Below, piece after piece: positions 10,111-24,666 of a DNA stretch of 49,536 nucleotides. This stretch comes from a virus. Taxonomy: Duplodnaviria; Heunggongvirae; Uroviricota; Caudoviricetes. Position 1 is the stretch's first letter; every line of letters starts with the position of its first letter. The DNA is taken from the IMG/VR virus record IMGVR_UViG_2534681701_000013, positions 1 to 49,536 of that record. One strand, written 5' to 3'. The notes under the pieces were generated by a model. The model was not told the origin of the DNA and did no database searches. It worked only from the letters and a program-made list of their open reading frames with translations. The translations under genes were made by a program, and so were the position numbers.

Positions 10111-10364
10111 AATAATTTGTTTCTAAACGACTAAAATATGGAGGTTCTTATATTTATATGAGCCTCGTTTTATGCTTTTTGTTAATGTCTTTATTTTTTA
10201 TGTATTCTTTTGTACTTTCAAGATTATGGCGTAAGAAAATTGCAATACGATTATTGTTGTATATTCAAGATAATGTGACCTTAATTGTCTTTTTAAATAA
10301 AAATTAAACAAAAATTATATCCCACCACTAAGGTTTATAAAAGCATACGTTAGCAGGTGTCACC

Positions 10365-12355: not shown

Positions 12356-12823
12356 ATGAAAACACTTATCGTTTCAACTGTATTGGCATTCATAACATTT
12401 TCTGCGCAGGCTGCAGCATTTCAGGTCACTAGTAATGAAATAAAAACAGGAGAGCAACTTACAACGTCTCATGTCTTTTCTGGATTTGGGTGTGAAGGTG
12501 GTAATACATCGCCCTCATTAACCTGGTCTGGTGTTCCTGAAGGTACCAAAAGCTTTGCCGTAACTGTATATGATCCAGATGCACCTACAGGCAGTGGTTG
12601 GTGGCATTGGACTGTTGTTAATATTCCAGCAACAGTAACATATTTGCCCGTTGATGCAGGGAGACGTGATGGAACAAAACTGCCGACTGGTGCTGTTCAA
12701 GGCCGAAATGATTTTGGCTATGCTGGGTTTGGTGGCGCATGTCCTCCTAAAGGAGATAAACCACATCATTACCAGTTTAAAGTATGGGCTCTAAAAACTG
12801 AAAAGATTCCTGTAGATTCTTAG
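12356..12823 (+). pseudogene. ybcL: ybcL (periplasmic PEBP/RKIP-family protein), 5' part, interrupted by IS2 after codon 155
   Basis: Signal peptide MKTLIVSTVLAFITFSAQA then PEBP-like sequence; reading frame runs into the IS2 end at 12821. Confidence 0.85.
12816..12820. repeat. IS2 target-site duplication, left copy (ATTCT)
   Basis: 5-bp ATTCT directly abutting the IS2 left end; identical copy at 14152-14156. Confidence 0.85.
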
Positions 12824-12911
12824 ACTGCCCCCCTGAATCTCCAGACAACCAGTATCACTTAAATAAGTGATAGTCTTAATACTAGTTTTTAGACTAGTCA
12901 TTGGAGAACAG

Positions 12912-13277
12912 ATGATTGATGTCTTAGGGCCGGAGAAACGCAGACGGCGTACCACACAGGAAAAGATCGCAATTGTTCAGCAGAGCTTTGAACCGGGGAT
13001 GACGGTCTCCCTCGTTGCCCGGCAACATGGTGTAGCAGCCAGCCAGTTATTTCTCTGGCGTAAGCAATACCAGGAAGGAAGTCTTACTGCTGTCGCCGCC
13101 GGAGAACAGGTTGTTCCTGCCTCTGAACTTGCTGCCGCCATGAAGCAGATTAAAGAACTCCAGCGCCTGCTCGGCAAGAAAACGATGGAAAATGAACTCC
13201 TCAAAGAAGCCGTTGAATATGGACGGGCAAAAAAGTGGATAGCGCACGCGCCCTTATTGCCCGGGGATGGGGAGTAA
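12912..13277 (+). CDS. insC: IS2 OrfA (InsC, HTH transposase subunit)
   Basis: [26 protein letters not shown]... matches IS2 InsC. Confidence 0.9.
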
Positions 13278-14140
13278 GCTTAGTCAGCCGTTGTCTCCGG
13301 GTGTCGCGTGCGCAGTTGCACGTCATTCTCAGACGAACCGATGACTGGATGGATGGCCGCCGCAGTCGTCACACTGATGATACGGATGTGCTTCTCCGTA
13401 TACACCATGTTATCGGAGAGCTGCCCACGTATGGTTATCGTCGGGTATGGGCGCTGCTTCGCAGACAGGCAGAACTTGATGGTATGCCTGCGATCAATGC
13501 CAAACGTGTTTACCGGATCATGCGCCAGAATGCGCTGTTGCTTGAGCGAAAACCTGCTGTACCGCCATCGAAACGGGCACATACAGGCAGAGTGGCCGTG
13601 AAAGAAAGCAATCAGCGATGGTGCTCTGACGGGTTCGAGTTCTGCTGTGATAACGGAGAGAGACTGCGTGTCACGTTCGCGCTGGACTGCTGTGATCGTG
13701 AGGCACTGCACTGGGCGGTCACTACCGGCGGCTTCAACAGTGAAACAGTACAGGACGTCATGCTGGGAGCGGTGGAACGCCGCTTCGGCAACGATCTTCC
13801 GTCGTCTCCAGTGGAGTGGCTGACGGATAATGGTTCATGCTACCGGGCTAATGAAACACGCCAGTTCGCCCGGATGTTGGGACTTGAACCGAAGAACACG
13901 GCGGTGCGGAGTCCGGAGAGTAACGGAATAGCAGAGAGCTTCGTGAAAACGATAAAGCGTGACTACATCAGTATCATGCCCAAACCAGACGGGTTAACGG
14001 CAGCAAAGAACCTTGCAGAGGCGTTCGAGCATTATAACGAATGGCATCCGCATAGTGCGCTGGGTTATCGCTCGCCACGGGAATATCTGCGGCAGCGGGC
14101 TTGTAATGGGTTAAGTGATAACAGATGTCTGGAAATATAG
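13235..14140 (+). CDS. insD: IS2 OrfB (InsD, DDE transposase; expressed as OrfAB by -1 frameshift)
   Basis: 301-aa ORF overlapping insC; translation matches IS2 InsD. Confidence 0.9.
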
Positions 14141-14151
14141 GGGGAAATCCA

Positions 14152-14156
14152 ATTCT
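14152..14156. repeat. IS2 target-site duplication, right copy (ATTCT)
   Basis: Identical to 12816-12820. Confidence 0.85.
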
Positions 14157-19711: not shown

Positions 19712-20169
19712 ACAGAGTAACCGCGATTATCTCCGCTCTGGTTATCTGCATCATCGTCTGCCTGTCATGGGCTGTTAATCATTACCGTGATAACGCCATT
19801 ACCTACAAAGCCCAGCGCGACAAAAATGCCAGAGAACTGAAGCTGGCGAACGCGGCAATTACTGACATGCAGATGCGCCAGCGTGATGTTGCTGCACTGG
19901 ATGAAAAATACACGAAGGAGTTAGCTAATGCGAAAGCTGAAAATGATGCTCTGCGTGATGATGTTGCCGCTGGTCGTCGTCGGTTGCACATCAAAGCAGT
20001 CTGTCAGTCAGTGCGTGAAGCCACCACCGCCTCCGGCGTGGATAATGCAGCCTCCCCCCGACTGGCAGACACCGCTGAACGGGATTATTTCACCCTCAGA
20101 GAGAGGCTGATCACTATGCAAAAACAACTGGAAGGAACCCAGAAGTATATTAATGAGCAGTGCAGATAG
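19708..20169 (+). CDS. rzpD: Rz i-spanin
   Basis: 153 aa from [23 protein letters not shown]... (N-terminal TM, coiled-coil rest); ATG at 19708 overlaps endolysin stop. Confidence 0.85.
19928..20110 (+). CDS. rzoD: Rz1 o-spanin lipoprotein, embedded in +1 frame of Rz
   Basis: 60 aa [23 protein letters not shown]... with lipobox VVGC and proline-rich stretch [15 protein letters not shown]. Confidence 0.8.
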
Positions 20170-20200
20170 AGCTGCCCATATCGATGGGCAACTCATGCAA

Positions 20201-20494
20201 TTATTGTGAGCAATACACACGCGCTTCCAGCGGAGTATAAATGCCTAAAGTAATAAAACCGAGCAATCCATTTACGAATGTTTGCTGGGTTTCTGTTTTA
20301 ACAACATTTTCTGCGCCGCCACAAATTTTGGCTGCATCAACAGTTTTCTCCTGTCCAATTCCCGAAACGAAGAAGTGATGGGTGATGGTTTCCTTTGGTG
20401 TTACTGCTGTCGGTTTGTTTCCAACAGTAAACGTCTGTTGAGCACATCCTGTAATAAGCATTGCCAGAGCGGCAGAAAACAACATTTTTTTCAT
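20201..20494 (-). CDS. borD: Bor lipoprotein (serum-resistance, Bor/Iss family)
   Basis: 97 aa from MKKMLFSAALAMLITGCAQQ... (lipobox ITGC); ATG at 20492-20494 with AGGA RBS. Confidence 0.85.
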   Translation of the reverse strand: MKKMLFSAALAMLITGCAQQTFTVGNKPTAVTPKETITHHFFVSGIGQEKTVDAAKICGGAENVVKTETQQTFVNGLLGFITLGIYTPLEARVYCSQ

Positions 20495-20503
20495 CTTATT
20501 ATC

Positions 20504-20511
20504 CTGCATTG
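20504..20511. repeat. IS66-family target-site duplication, left copy (CTGCATTG)
   Basis: 8-bp CTGCATTG abutting the element end; identical copy at 23213-23220. Confidence 0.7.
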
Positions 20512-20541
20512 GTAAGCGGCTCGTCAGAACCGTATTGATAT

Positions 20542-22113
20542 TTACTGAGAGCTCAGATCAACTTTCCAGGGCAACAGATCGCGTACCCGGTTTGCCGGCC
20601 AGTCCTGGATATGTTCAATGACGTAGCGCAGCCACTTTTCTGGCTCCACATTGTTCAGACGGCATGTGCCGATCAGCGAGTACAACACCGCCGCATGTTC
20701 ACCACCGCTGTCGGAACCCGCGAACATCCAGTTTTTCCGGCCTACGGCCACTCCCCGTAAGGCGTTCTCTGCGATGTTGTTGTCGATTTCCACCCAGCCA
20801 TTACTGCAGTACACGTTCAGTGCATCCCACTGTTTCAGCAGGTATGCGAACGCTTTTGCCGTATCTGAGTGACGCGACAGTGTTTTCATCTGTTGCTGTA
20901 TCCAGCCATACAGTGACTGCATCAGTGGCGCGGCTCTGATTTTTCTTGCCGCCAGACGCTGTTCTGCTGAACAGCCCCGGACCTCTGCCTCGATGGCATA
21001 CAGTTCACCGATACGCTGCAGGGCTTCCGTGGTGATGTCGGTGGGCGCTCTTGCATGCACATCGTGGATTTTTCTCCGGGCATGAGCCATACACGCGGCT
21101 TCCGTTATTCTGCCGGATTCGTATAACGCCCGGTAACCACCGTAAGCATCGGCCTGAAGCACACCGCTGTAACCGGCCAGGTGATTTTGTGGATGGATAC
21201 CTTTCCGGTCCGGACTGTACGCGAACCAGACCGCCGCAGGCATCTGTGAACCGGCGTTACGGTCATCACGGACGTAGACCCACAGCCGGGCTGTCCGGGT
21301 TTTACCGCTGCCCGGCTCCTGGACCGGGACGGGGATATCATCAGCATGGACTTTACCGGGCATCAGCACATACTGGCGCAGGACGTCATACAGCGGCTCC
21401 AGCAGTTCAGCAACAGCCCCTGTCCAGCGCCCCAGTGTGGCACGGCTCAGCTCCACTCCCTGACGACGGTATATTTCTGACTGGCGGTATAACGGCAGAT
21501 GGTCTGCATATTTCCCGGTGACAACATGGGCCAGAAGCCCCGCTCCGGCATAACTGCGTGCAATGGGTTTTGAAGGCACCGGTGCCTGCACGATATGGTC
21601 GCACCGGCAACAGGCCTGTTTCGGACGTTGTGTTTCGATAACCTTAAAGGCACTGCTGATAAGCTCCAGTTGCTCTGACACATCACATCCCAGTGGACTG
21701 AGTTCACCACCACAGGCCGGACAGCATTCCTCTTCCGGCCGGATGACCCGGGTTTCACGGGGAAGTGAAGCCGGTAACGGTTTACGGGCTGAAGACTGGC
21801 GCAGGGCGGATGGCAGTACCGGGTCATATTGCTCACCCAGCGTTTCTGCCATTTCTTCCTGAAGTGCGCTGATTCGCTCCTGTGCTTCCTGTATCTGCCG
21901 TTCGGTTTTTGCACGAAGTTTTTCTGAGCTTTTACCGAACTGCATACGTTGCAGTTTCGCAACCAGCGCCTTCAGCCGGTTGATTTCGGAAGCATAAGCC
22001 GCCACCCGCTGTGAGAGCAGGCGGTTGTATTCAGCCATCTGGCGGATGGTGTCCTGTTGCGTCTGCAACAGTGCCCGCAGGCGGGCGTTCTCATGAGCAA
22101 GTGAGGTGTCCAT
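20542..22113 (-). CDS. tnpC: IS66-family transposase TnpC (orf3)
   Basis: 523 aa with N-terminal leucine zipper-like region, CPACGGEL zinc motif and central DDE-like region. Confidence 0.9.
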
Positions 22114-22132
22114 ATCCTCACTTTACAACGGG

Positions 22133-22480
22133 TTATATACGGATGCCAGTGCGTTCCGTTCGTTTCGGGTGCTTCCAGTTGATACCTTCAAGAAGCATGG
22201 ATAACTGAGCCGGAGTAAGGTGAACCTTTCCATCGCGGGTGACCGGCCAGACGAAGCGGCCCCGCTCCAGGCGTTTGGTGAAGAGGCACAGTCCGTCACT
22301 GTCAGCCCACAGCACTTTTATCTGGTCACCCCGGCGTCCGCGGAAGATGAACAGATGCCCGGAGAACGGGTCATCCTTCAGGACGTTCTGAACTTTTGAT
22401 GCCAGGCCGTTAAAACCATTTCGCATGTCGGTGATACCGGCAACCAGCCAGATACGCGAACCGGCAGGGAGAGATATCAT
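22133..22480 (-). CDS. tnpB: IS66-family TnpB (orf2)
   Basis: 115-aa ORF MISLPAGSRIWLVAGITDMRNGFNGL... typical of IS66 orf2. Confidence 0.85.
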   Translation of the reverse strand: MISLPAGSRIWLVAGITDMRNGFNGLASKVQNVLKDDPFSGHLFIFRGRRGDQIKVLWADSDGLCLFTKRLERGRFVWPVTRDGKVHLTPAQLSMLLEGINWKHPKRTERTGIRI

Positions 22481-23127
22481 CAGTGGCTGCTCCCTTTCAT
22501 TTCGCGGATAAGTGACTGTAATAACGCCGGTGTCAGTTCACCTTTCAGCCTGAGAGTTCCGGCCGGCAGAACCAGCTCGCAGCACAGACTGTCGGTCGGT
22601 GTATTTATCTGCTCAACCTGCACGGGGTCCGGGATTTTATTATTCGGCTCCGGCGTTAACGTCACGGGAAGTAGCGATGTTTCATGTTCGCCGGGCGGCT
22701 GCAGGCCGCCGTTACGCCAGAGATGCCGCCAGTTAAAGAGCAGGTTATCGTTGATTCCATTCTCACGAGCTATTTGTGCGACACAGGCACCGGGTAAAAG
22801 AGTTTGCTGAACAAGTCTCCATTTAAACTCCGGTGAAAATCGGTTCCGACGGGGTTTCTCTGCTTTCACAGGCTGAGTCACGGTCGGGGCTGAAGGGTAT
22901 CGCCCCGGGAAAAGAGCCCGGGCCAGTTGCCCGCAGGAATATTTACCGGAAAGAGGCCAGTCAGTGAATACCTGGTGAAATCGCCTCACCAGAGAAAAAA
23001 TGGCGGTTTTGCTGACACCAGTCTGCGCAGAAATGCGCGGGTACGACAGTGACTCGTCAAATCTCAGCTGTAGCACACGCAGGATCAATTCCGGATTATC
23101 TGCCAGTACCGCCTTTCGTGCATTCAT
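22480..23127 (-). CDS. tnpA: IS66-family TnpA (orf1)
   Basis: 215-aa ORF whose stop overlaps the tnpB start; position and size as IS66 orf1. Confidence 0.8.
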   Translation of the reverse strand: MNARKAVLADNPELILRVLQLRFDESLSYPRISAQTGVSKTAIFSLVRRFHQVFTDWPLSGKYSCGQLARALFPGRYPSAPTVTQPVKAEKPRRNRFSPEFKWRLVQQTLLPGACVAQIARENGINDNLLFNWRHLWRNGGLQPPGEHETSLLPVTLTPEPNNKIPDPVQVEQINTPTDSLCCELVLPAGTLRLKGELTPALLQSLIREMKGSSH

Positions 23128-23212
23128 CTTAAATGTCCTTTTACTGCGAAAATGGACATTAGTATCGGAAACAGGAAAGGAAGGCGAAAGACGGTTTAAA
23201 TGATGCGCTTAC

Positions 23213-23220
23213 CTGCATTG
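23213..23220. repeat. IS66-family target-site duplication, right copy (CTGCATTG)
   Basis: Identical to 20504-20511. Confidence 0.7.
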
Positions 23221-23563
23221 TTAAAAACGGCAGAATCCTATGTGACAACAATTAAACGATAGTTAAATGGATTGATGAAAATTAAAACTATATAGGTGGA
23301 TGCTCAGCCTATTGGAGGAGGGGGGGCACTCAGAATCCTGTGGAATGAAATAAACCGCTCTTTCTGTCCATTACCCTTTTAGCTGCGCTGTATCGTCGCC
23401 GTATTCCCGCATTAACCATGACCGTAGCCCGACGGGGAATTCCTTCTGCGTGAGTGTGCGGGAATAATCAAAAACGATGCACACCGGGTTTTACTGTGCT
23501 GACAGACGCAGGGTTACCCTCATAGTCGCTTTTCCGGTGCGATGGTGGAAGAAACCGGGATGT

Positions 23564-23758
23564 TTATTCATCATCACTCTGGATTGATGTATATGCTCTC
23601 TTTTCTGACGTTAGTCTCCGACGGCAGGCTTCAATGACCCAGGCTGAGAAATTCCCAGACCCTTTTTGCTCAAGAGCGATGTTAATTTGTTCAATCATTT
23701 GGTTAGGAAAGCGGATGTTGCGGGTTGTTGTTCTGCGGGTTCTGTTCTTAGTTGACAT
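23564..23758 (-). CDS. Hypothetical small basic protein near cos (possible ribbon-helix-helix DNA binder)
   Basis: 64-aa ORF with ATG start; basic N-terminus and RNIRFP...helix pattern; lies in sequence I recognise as the lambda right end. Confidence 0.4.
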   Translation of the reverse strand: MSTKNRTRRTTTRNIRFPNQMIEQINIALEQKGSGNFSAWVIEACRRRLTSEKRAYTSIQSDDE

Positions 23759-23929
23759 GAGGTTGCCCCGTATTCAGTGTCGCTGATTTGTATTGTCTGA
23801 AGTTGTTTTTACGTTAAGTTGATGCAGATCAATTAATACGATACCTGCGTCATAATTGATTATTTGACGTGGTTTGATGGCGTAGATGCACGTTGTGACA
23901 TGTAGATGATAATTATTATCATTTTGCGG

Positions 23930-24120
23930 GTCCTTTCCGGCGATCCGACAGGTTACGGGGCGGCGACCTCGCGGGTTTTCGCTATTTATGAAAATTTTCC
24001 GGTTTAAGGCATTTCCGTTCTTCTTCGTCGTAACTTAATGTTTTTATTTAAAATACCCCCTGAAAAGAAAGGAAACGACAGGTGCTGAAAACGAGCTTTT
24101 GGGCCTCTGTCGTTTCCTTT
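23930..24120 (+). other. cos site (cosQ-cosN-cosB); cosN 12-nt cohesive end GGGCGGCGACCT at 23958-23969
   Basis: ...TCCGACAGGTTACG/GGGCGGCGACCTCGCGGGTTTTCGCTATTTATGAAAATTTTCCGGTTTAAGG matches the junction of lambda right and left ends as I recall it. Confidence 0.9.
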
Positions 24121-24146
24121 CTCTGTTTTTGGCCGTGGAATGAACA

Positions 24147-24666
24147 ATGGAAGTCAACAAAAAGCAGCTGGCTGACATTTTCGGTGCGAGTATCCGTACC
24201 ATTCAGAACTGGCAGGAACAGGGAATGCCCGTTCTGCGAGGCGGTGGCAAGGGTAATGAGGTGCTTTATGACTCTGCCGCCGTTATAAGATGGTATGCCG
24301 AAAGGGATGCTGAAATTGAGAACGAAAAGCTGCGCCGGGAAGTTGAAGAACTGCGGCAGGCCAGCGAGACAGATCTCCAGCCAGGGACTATTGAGTACGA
24401 ACGCCATCGACTTACGCGTGCGCAGGCCGACGCACAGGAGCTGAAAAATGCCAGAGACTCCGCAGAAGTGGTGGAAACCGCATTCTGTACTTTCGTGCTG
24501 TCACGGATCGCAGGTGAAATTGCCAGTATTCTTGACGGGATCCCTCTCTCGGTACAGCGGCGTTTTCCGGAACTGGAAAACCGACATGTTGATTTCCTGA
24601 AACGGGATATCATCAAAGCCATGAACAAAGCAGCCGCGCTGGATGAACTGATACCGGGGTTGCTGA

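Follow-up and report, generated by a model that had tools for sequence, protein, structure and literature searches.

An ISCro1-like insertion sequence upstream of bor in a lambda-like Escherichia coli prophage: predicted separation of the gene from its promoter and putative expression by read-through

Introduction

When an insertion sequence lands directly in front of a phage gene, it has to be asked whether the gene keeps its promoter and, if it does not, what could still transcribe it. This question is raised by the bor gene of the window, meaning the whole stretch of 49,536 nucleotides analysed here, which is a DLP12/lambda-like prophage in prophage order, running from int to the tail fibres, and whose sequence is found unchanged within contig AQET01000029.1 of the draft assembly GCA_000356165.2, the source genome. 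A close relative, the inducible phage PhiR34_1, shares its gene order at 94–99% identity; this collinearity is broken by two insertions and in the immunity region, in parts of J and the side-tail-fibre region, and at the right end past tfa.

The bor gene (20494-20201, minus strand) is intact and encodes a Bor/Iss-type outer-membrane lipoprotein of 97 amino acids (PF06291 Lambda_Bor, 106.7 bits), sharing 92% identity with its lambda counterpart and 99% with that of PhiR34_1. Its domain, the cysteine of its lipobox (LITGC) and its position after Rz on the opposite strand all fit the Bor/Iss lipoprotein family, and it occupies the same slot as borD of the cryptic prophage DLP12 and bor of lambda, PhoP-regulon lipoprotein genes that lysogens express, that is, after Rz, on the opposite strand and before cos and nu1. 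In the window, cosN (GGGCGGCGACCT) is located at 23958-23969, 746 bp from the insertion sequence, and nu1 starts at 24147.

Structure of the element

The insertion sequence (IS) has 2,701 bp and extends from 20512 to 23212 on the minus strand; its first letters, at 20512, read GTAAGCGGCTCG..., and its last, at 23212, read ...GATGCGCTTAC. Imperfect terminal inverted repeats of about 20–30 bp, beginning with GTAAGCG, are a trait of the IS66 family. Here, the repeat at the tnpC end (IRR, 20512-20536, GTAAGCGGCTCGTCAGAACCGTATT) faces bor, while the one at the tnpA end (IRL, 23188-23212, reverse complement GTAAGCGCATCATTTAAACCGTCTT) faces the bor promoter. Both were located with a repeat finder, which paired imperfect arms of 26 nt (20511-20536 and 23188-23213) with 73% complementarity. 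Both arms begin with GTAAGCG, and copies of the element at other loci have identical ends.

Three full-length reading frames are found on the minus strand, all scoring far above the curated NCBIfam and Pfam cut-offs: tnpA (23127-22480), for an IS66-like accessory protein of 215 amino acids with a helix-turn-helix (NF038385, 281.8 bits for a cut-off of 150; PF01527); tnpB (22480-22133), for an IS66 accessory protein of 115 amino acids (NF033819, 128.9 bits for a cut-off of 50; PF05717); and tnpC (22113-20542), for a DDE transposase of 523 amino acids (NF033517, 473.1 bits for a cut-off of 180; PF03050), in which the Pfam domains LZ_Tnp_IS66, zf-IS66, DDE_Tnp_IS66 and DDE_Tnp_IS66_C are present. 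The tnpA stop and the tnpB start overlap (ATGA), and 19 nt separate tnpB from tnpC. The tnpA-tnpB-tnpC layout, the inverted repeats and an 8-bp duplication of the target, described below, are all present and place the element in the IS66 family.

Regarding RNA structure, a long stem predicted in the transcript of the left end of the IS would enclose the ribosome-binding site and start codon of tnpA, with a folding energy no better than that of shuffled sequences (z ~ -1). A scan of 20000-24200 against Rfam gave no RNA family, only chance-level miRNA matches.

Identity as ISCro1 and recent activity

ISCro1 was first named in Citrobacter rodentium and occurs widely in E. coli, on chromosomes as well as plasmids. 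No other IS of C. rodentium has expanded as much (PMC3072379), and ISCro1 has been described as an IS66-family element of 2,699 bp producing 8-bp duplications (PMC12115866). The TnpC of the present element is identical to WP_000381395.1, which PGAP names 'IS66-like element ISCro1 family transposase', at 518 of 523 positions (99%), and the whole IS shares 96–98% DNA identity with copies annotated as ISCro1 family by NCBI's pipeline, which labels the closest copies just 'IS66 family transposase'. The tnpA-tnpB-tnpC layout and the 8-bp duplication are those of ISCro1, and the length of 2,701 bp compares with published values of 2,699–2,704 bp; the difference lies in a few percent of sequence divergence. 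On these grounds, the element is taken to be, and is here called, an ISCro1 isoform, an assignment made through PGAP-named copies and the published length. IS679 and the IS66-family elements of E. coli, in the account of Han et al. from 2001 (J Bacteriol 183:4296), are reportedly of about 2.7 kb and have the genes tnpA-tnpB-tnpC, inverted repeats that are imperfect and some 25 bp long, and an 8-bp duplication; a relationship of the present element to IS679 would be a candidate only.

Full-length copies, covering at least 80% of the element, are present in 1,472 of the 5,426 complete E. coli genomes. The source genome carries four, three of them 100% identical and one with a 1-bp indel that splits tnpA, each in a different gene and flanked by its own 8-bp duplication (CAATGCAG, TTATATCC, CTTTCCCG and GTTAAAAG). 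The duplications seen overall at other copies are TTATATCC, CTTTCCCG, GTTAAAAG, CGGGAAAG and CCCGAAAC. With four copies in one genome, three of them identical and with distinct duplications, the element has recently been active.

The insertion site and its distribution

The IS is flanked by the same octamer, CTGCATTG, at 20504-20511 next to bor and at 23213-23220 on the side of the promoter, a match of 8/8 letters expected by chance at about 1.5e-5. Phage PhiR34_1 preserves the uninterrupted site, reading ...TTATTATCCTGCATTGTTAAAAACGG..., with both junctions aligned and the sequence joined across the insertion point as ...CATCTTATTATCCTGCATTGTTAAAAACGGCAG...; because the octamer occurs there only once, its two copies in the window represent a true target-site duplication. 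Moreover, the flanks of the IS are 96–99% identical to lambdoid phages without it.

These observations bear on an earlier note, made from the letters of the window, which had described an IS66-family tnpA-tnpB-tnpC element with GTAAGCG-terminal inverted repeats, flanked by an 8-bp direct repeat and placed by a genuine transposition event 17 bp upstream of bor. The NCBIfam and Pfam matches agree with the family and gene layout, both repeat arms were recovered in the sequence, the flanking repeats were found again on re-inspection, and transposition is borne out by the empty site of PhiR34_1 and by further copies with duplications of their own; the distance of 17 bp is also correct. The span of 20495-23220 that it gave does contain the element, and only its limits can be drawn tighter, as they take in, besides the IS proper, the distal duplication and the 17 nt of bor leader.

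On the bor side, 17 nt of the leader (20495-20511, minus strand), as defined by the empty-site alignment, are still joined to the gene, whose ATG at 20494 is 17 nt from the IS end. The Shine-Dalgarno sequence AGGA (20502-20505, minus strand) overlaps the proximal target duplication and is regenerated by it. Whether or not the IS is present, the RNA around the bor ribosome-binding site is predicted to fold in the same way, and no new sequestration of this site by the IS end was found by RNA folding. The IS and bor are on the same strand, with bor starting 47 nt past the tnpC stop; this co-orientation is a point missing from the earlier note.

The bor-IS junction (100% identity over 600 bp) was found in one of the 5,426 complete E. 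coli genomes, that of strain 510016, plus the draft source genome, and exact-match scans of GTDB species-representative genomes and IMG/VR viral contigs returned none. In strain 510016, the tnpA of the IS in the bor leader has later been truncated by ISEc62 and IS1, and the prophage has decayed to a DLP12-like remnant. Independent ISCro1-like insertions, both co-oriented with bor, are found in ETEC1746, inside bor and with the duplication CCCGAAAC, and in strain 98206, about 750 bp upstream of bor. Three nearby events are too few to claim a hotspot or an orientation bias. The insertion is a real but ordinary polymorphism, of a known IS and of a typical, already known kind, and it leaves current understanding unchallenged.

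Position of the bor promoter

In K-12, borD belongs to the PhoP regulon (PMC5740661), and a genome-wide study has mapped its transcription start site to position 578144 of NC_000913.2, which precedes the ATG by 28 nt (Kim et al. 2012, PMC3415461, supplementary file 2). The promoter sequence of the K-12 gene is given as ...TGTTTAGGGTTTGTTTAATTTTCTACACATACGATTCTGCGA, and the sequence upstream of it reads TCAACTCATTGTTTAGGGTTTGTTTAATTTTCTACACATACGATTCTGCGA (PMC3415461). In the latter, a PhoP box without mismatches, TGTTTA-GGGTT-TGTTTA, spans -41 to -25 and the -10 hexamer TACGAT is at -12 to -7, and lambda is identical to K-12 across this stretch. From the PhoP-box region up to and including TCTGC, the allele shared by the window and PhiR34_1 shows a gap-free alignment to K-12/lambda (CATTTAACTATCGTTTAATTGTTGTCACATAGGATTCTGCCG).

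Based on this gap-free alignment and on the mapped K-12 start, the displaced native promoter of bor would be located at 23228-23269 on the minus strand, with its predicted start at 23228 (G), the -10 element TAGGAT at 23235-23240 and a PhoP-box-like repeat, CATTTAACTATCGTTTA, at 23253-23269. By homology with the K-12 allele, transcription in the uninterrupted phage would start approximately 25 nt upstream of the ATG. Counted from the ATG, the duplicated octamer lies at -17 to -10, corresponding to about +9 to +16 of such a transcript. Since the predicted start lies beyond the insertion point, the comparison supports an IS placed inside the bor 5'UTR, which would separate the gene from its promoter, and the stretch of 17 nt from the IS end to the ATG is too short to contain a promoter. 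The separation of bor from its promoter had been asserted in the earlier note, and the comparison with the uninterrupted lambda upstream region that it had proposed places the promoter beyond the insertion point; no native promoter lies on the gene's side, where just 17 nt remain.

K-12 borD and lambda bor have the same promoter core, CACATA(C/G)GATTCTGC, with the same spacing. The window allele differs from these in its degenerate half-sites, in a leader of 25 nt instead of 28 nt and in the IS within that leader. Its half-sites, CATTTA and CGTTTA, are degenerate, while the spacing and the -10 hexamer TAGGAT are kept. The borD-type pattern of PhoP activation was defined as (T/G)GTTTA-N5-(T/G)GTTTA overlapping the -35 region, followed after 12 nt by a -10 hexamer and having a mapped start, and a strict search for the PhoP box in this pattern gave no match in the bor promoter of the window allele. 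PhoP control of this allele is therefore a candidate only.

Expression of bor after the insertion

The following course of events would account for the arrangement. An ISCro1 isoform transposed into the 5' leader of bor in a DLP12/lambda-like E. coli prophage, with the usual 8-bp duplication, cutting between the predicted start of transcription, about 25 nt upstream of the ATG, and the ribosome-binding site, which the duplication rebuilt. The coding sequence and translation signals of bor have in this way stayed intact, with the predicted promoter now 2.7 kb away. The displaced promoter would start transcription 16 nt outside the tnpA-proximal end of the IS and fire into tnpA-tnpB-tnpC and then bor, and the IS's own tnp transcription would likewise head toward bor.

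With moderate confidence, bor is suggested to be expressed only as the distal part of such read-through transcripts, from its own promoter (Pbor), the tnp promoter or both, and at a reduced level. The read-through, its level and the start site in this allele are all predictions from sequence. Because the IS is co-oriented with bor, the native promoter can read through tnpABC into it. A consensus scan of the minus strand from the tnpC stop to the bor ATG gave no terminator-like site, and one weak terminator-like hairpin was found inside tnpA (22933-22919, minus strand). The tight packing of the tnp reading frames suggests that Rho-dependent polarity would be limited.

As the main alternative, it is possible, if doubtful, that the insertion is polar and that bor is effectively silenced, as a neutral or slightly deleterious loss of conversion-gene expression. 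The gene is cut off from its promoter, the hairpin within tnpA lies on the bor strand, and the further decay of the prophage in strain 510016 agrees with a locus that selection does not maintain. The one published parallel comes from E. coli ST131, in whose afa/dr regulatory region ISCro1, an IS of the same type, separates a promoter region from a virulence-associated gene and lowered the promoter activity and the downstream afaA transcript, the latter by about 2.5 log2 (PMC8764528); by this example, bor may be nearly silent. That case concerns another locus, with the IS 440 bp upstream and not in the leader, and no orientation is given for it (PMC8764528). The co-orientation of the IS with bor and the lack of terminator-like sites between tnpC and bor in the scan argue against silencing, as do the bor reading frame and Shine-Dalgarno sequence, intact in both insertion-bearing genomes. 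For so recent an insertion, decay is not informative.

Returning to read-through, a more specific form of it would join the genes into a single Pbor-tnpA-tnpB-tnpC-bor operon, in which a bor promoter responding to PhoP and low Mg2+ drives the transposase and bor is the fourth gene. This arrangement is rather improbable.

That bor is driven by a newly formed promoter at the end of the IS, hybrid or outward, is very unlikely. The match in question (20527-20498, minus strand) combines a -35 CTGACG in the inverted repeat, an 18-nt spacer and a -10 GATAAT in the bor leader; it agrees with the consensus at 9/12 positions on the bor strand and is the sole outward promoter-like match, and IS1 and further ISs are known to form promoters of this kind, as discussed in PMC8764528. 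However, the region holds two promoter-like matches for a mean of 2.9 in shuffled sequences, the spacer of 18 nt is accompanied by a weak -35, and the -10 ends 3 nt before the ATG. A transcript begun some 7 nt past GATAAT would have its first nucleotide within or beyond the start codon, and the Shine-Dalgarno sequence would be missing from it. CTGACG-18-GATAAT was consequently judged unlikely as a useful bor promoter.

Finally, the window comes from a draft assembly, where repeated ISs often cause misjoins, but an artefactual or chimeric junction is refuted by the perfect 8-bp duplication with its exactly matching empty site, by the presence of both junctions on one 261-kb contig of the source assembly and by the identical bor-IS junction in the independent complete genome NZ_CP025851.1.

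Consequences for the phage

Lambda can dispense with the stretch from Rz to cos, and its Q-modified polymerase resists terminators. The earlier note's statement that the insertion spares all essential phage functions is plausible, given that no structural, lysis or replication reading frame in the window is broken by this IS, but it requires the qualification that the IS sits in the late transcription unit. It lies antisense within the single unit read from pR', between Rz and nu1, a position that obliges the Q-antiterminated late transcription to traverse 2.7 kb of antisense IS. As such a polymerase ignores terminators, this transcription is expected to be tolerated.

Biological significance

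With three identical copies and a fourth that departs from them by just a 1-bp indel, the element is currently mobile in the source genome, which matters for annotation and genome stability in its lineage. If the Pbor-driven operon were real, transposase expression, and with it ISCro1 transposition, would be environmentally regulated, and the phage could also ferry the IS to new hosts; such carriage is possible since, apart from the insertion, the prophage seems complete and has inducible relatives. As bor/iss is a lysogenic-conversion gene that contributes to serum resistance, the locus would add one more case of rewiring by an IS, of small practical importance. In addition, the matched empty-site phages would offer a natural test of polarity versus read-through versus an outward promoter for the IS66 family.

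The bor leader and its upstream region

The target duplication left by the IS66-family element (an ISCro1 isoform carrying tnpA-tnpB-tnpC) contains an ATG in frame with the lipoprotein gene bor (window 20509-20507, minus strand), which would lengthen Bor by five residues, giving MQDNK-MKKML.... The empty-site allele has this upstream in-frame ATG as well. Because all reference annotations begin Bor at MKKML, the upstream codon is probably unused.

RNA folding of the left end of the element (window 23095-23212, minus strand) predicts a long stem, ACCGUCUUUCG...CGAAAGGCGGU, enclosing both the Shine-Dalgarno sequence and the start codon of tnpA. Such a stem might possibly guard against the translation of read-through transcripts; its folding energy is no better than that of shuffled sequences (z about -1).

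Regarding the region beyond the element, seven consecutive G residues (C when read along bor) occupy window 23320-23326, approximately 90 nt upstream of the start predicted for bor, and this run is one base shorter in the related phage PhiR34_1, indicating a homopolymer length polymorphism. When the whole window was searched with the strict PhoP-box pattern, a single match was obtained, TGTTTAATTTTTATTTA (10294-10310, minus strand), where 0.06 would be expected by chance; it lies just upstream of, and on the strand opposite to, a ybcK-like recombinase gene.

Insertion sequences in the prophage and the source genome

The second insertion sequence of the prophage is an IS2 of 1,331 bp (window 12821-14151), flanked by the 5-bp target duplication ATTCT (12816-12820 and 14152-14156). 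This IS2, which PhiR34_1 lacks, breaks a ybcL-like kinase-inhibitor gene, of which 155 of 183 profile positions are kept.

The source genome, E. coli assembly GCA_000356165.2, holds three more copies of the bor-leader element, on contigs AQET01000055, 37 and 68 (L011, L012 and L013, respectively). Two of the three are identical to the window copy, while the remaining one has its tnpA split by a 1-bp indel. Between them, these copies interrupt a DUF445 gene and a gene of the Lipoprotein_9 family; one copy adjoins a dynamin-family gene cluster.

Insertions near bor in other E. coli

Independent ISCro1-like insertions near bor were found in two other E. coli prophages (L005, 5158-7861; L006, 6011-8709), one of them within bor, with the duplication CCCGAAAC, and the other upstream of iss/bor, at a distance of about 750 bp; each has the same orientation as bor. 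In E. coli 510016 (L004, NZ_CP025851.1 3885171-3888280), the junction between bor and the element is the same as in the window. There, the element is cut within tnpA by ISEc62, an IS21-family element, and IS1A, and only a prophage remnant is left, beside appY and ompT. The 510016 locus looks like the same bor insertion at a later stage of decay.
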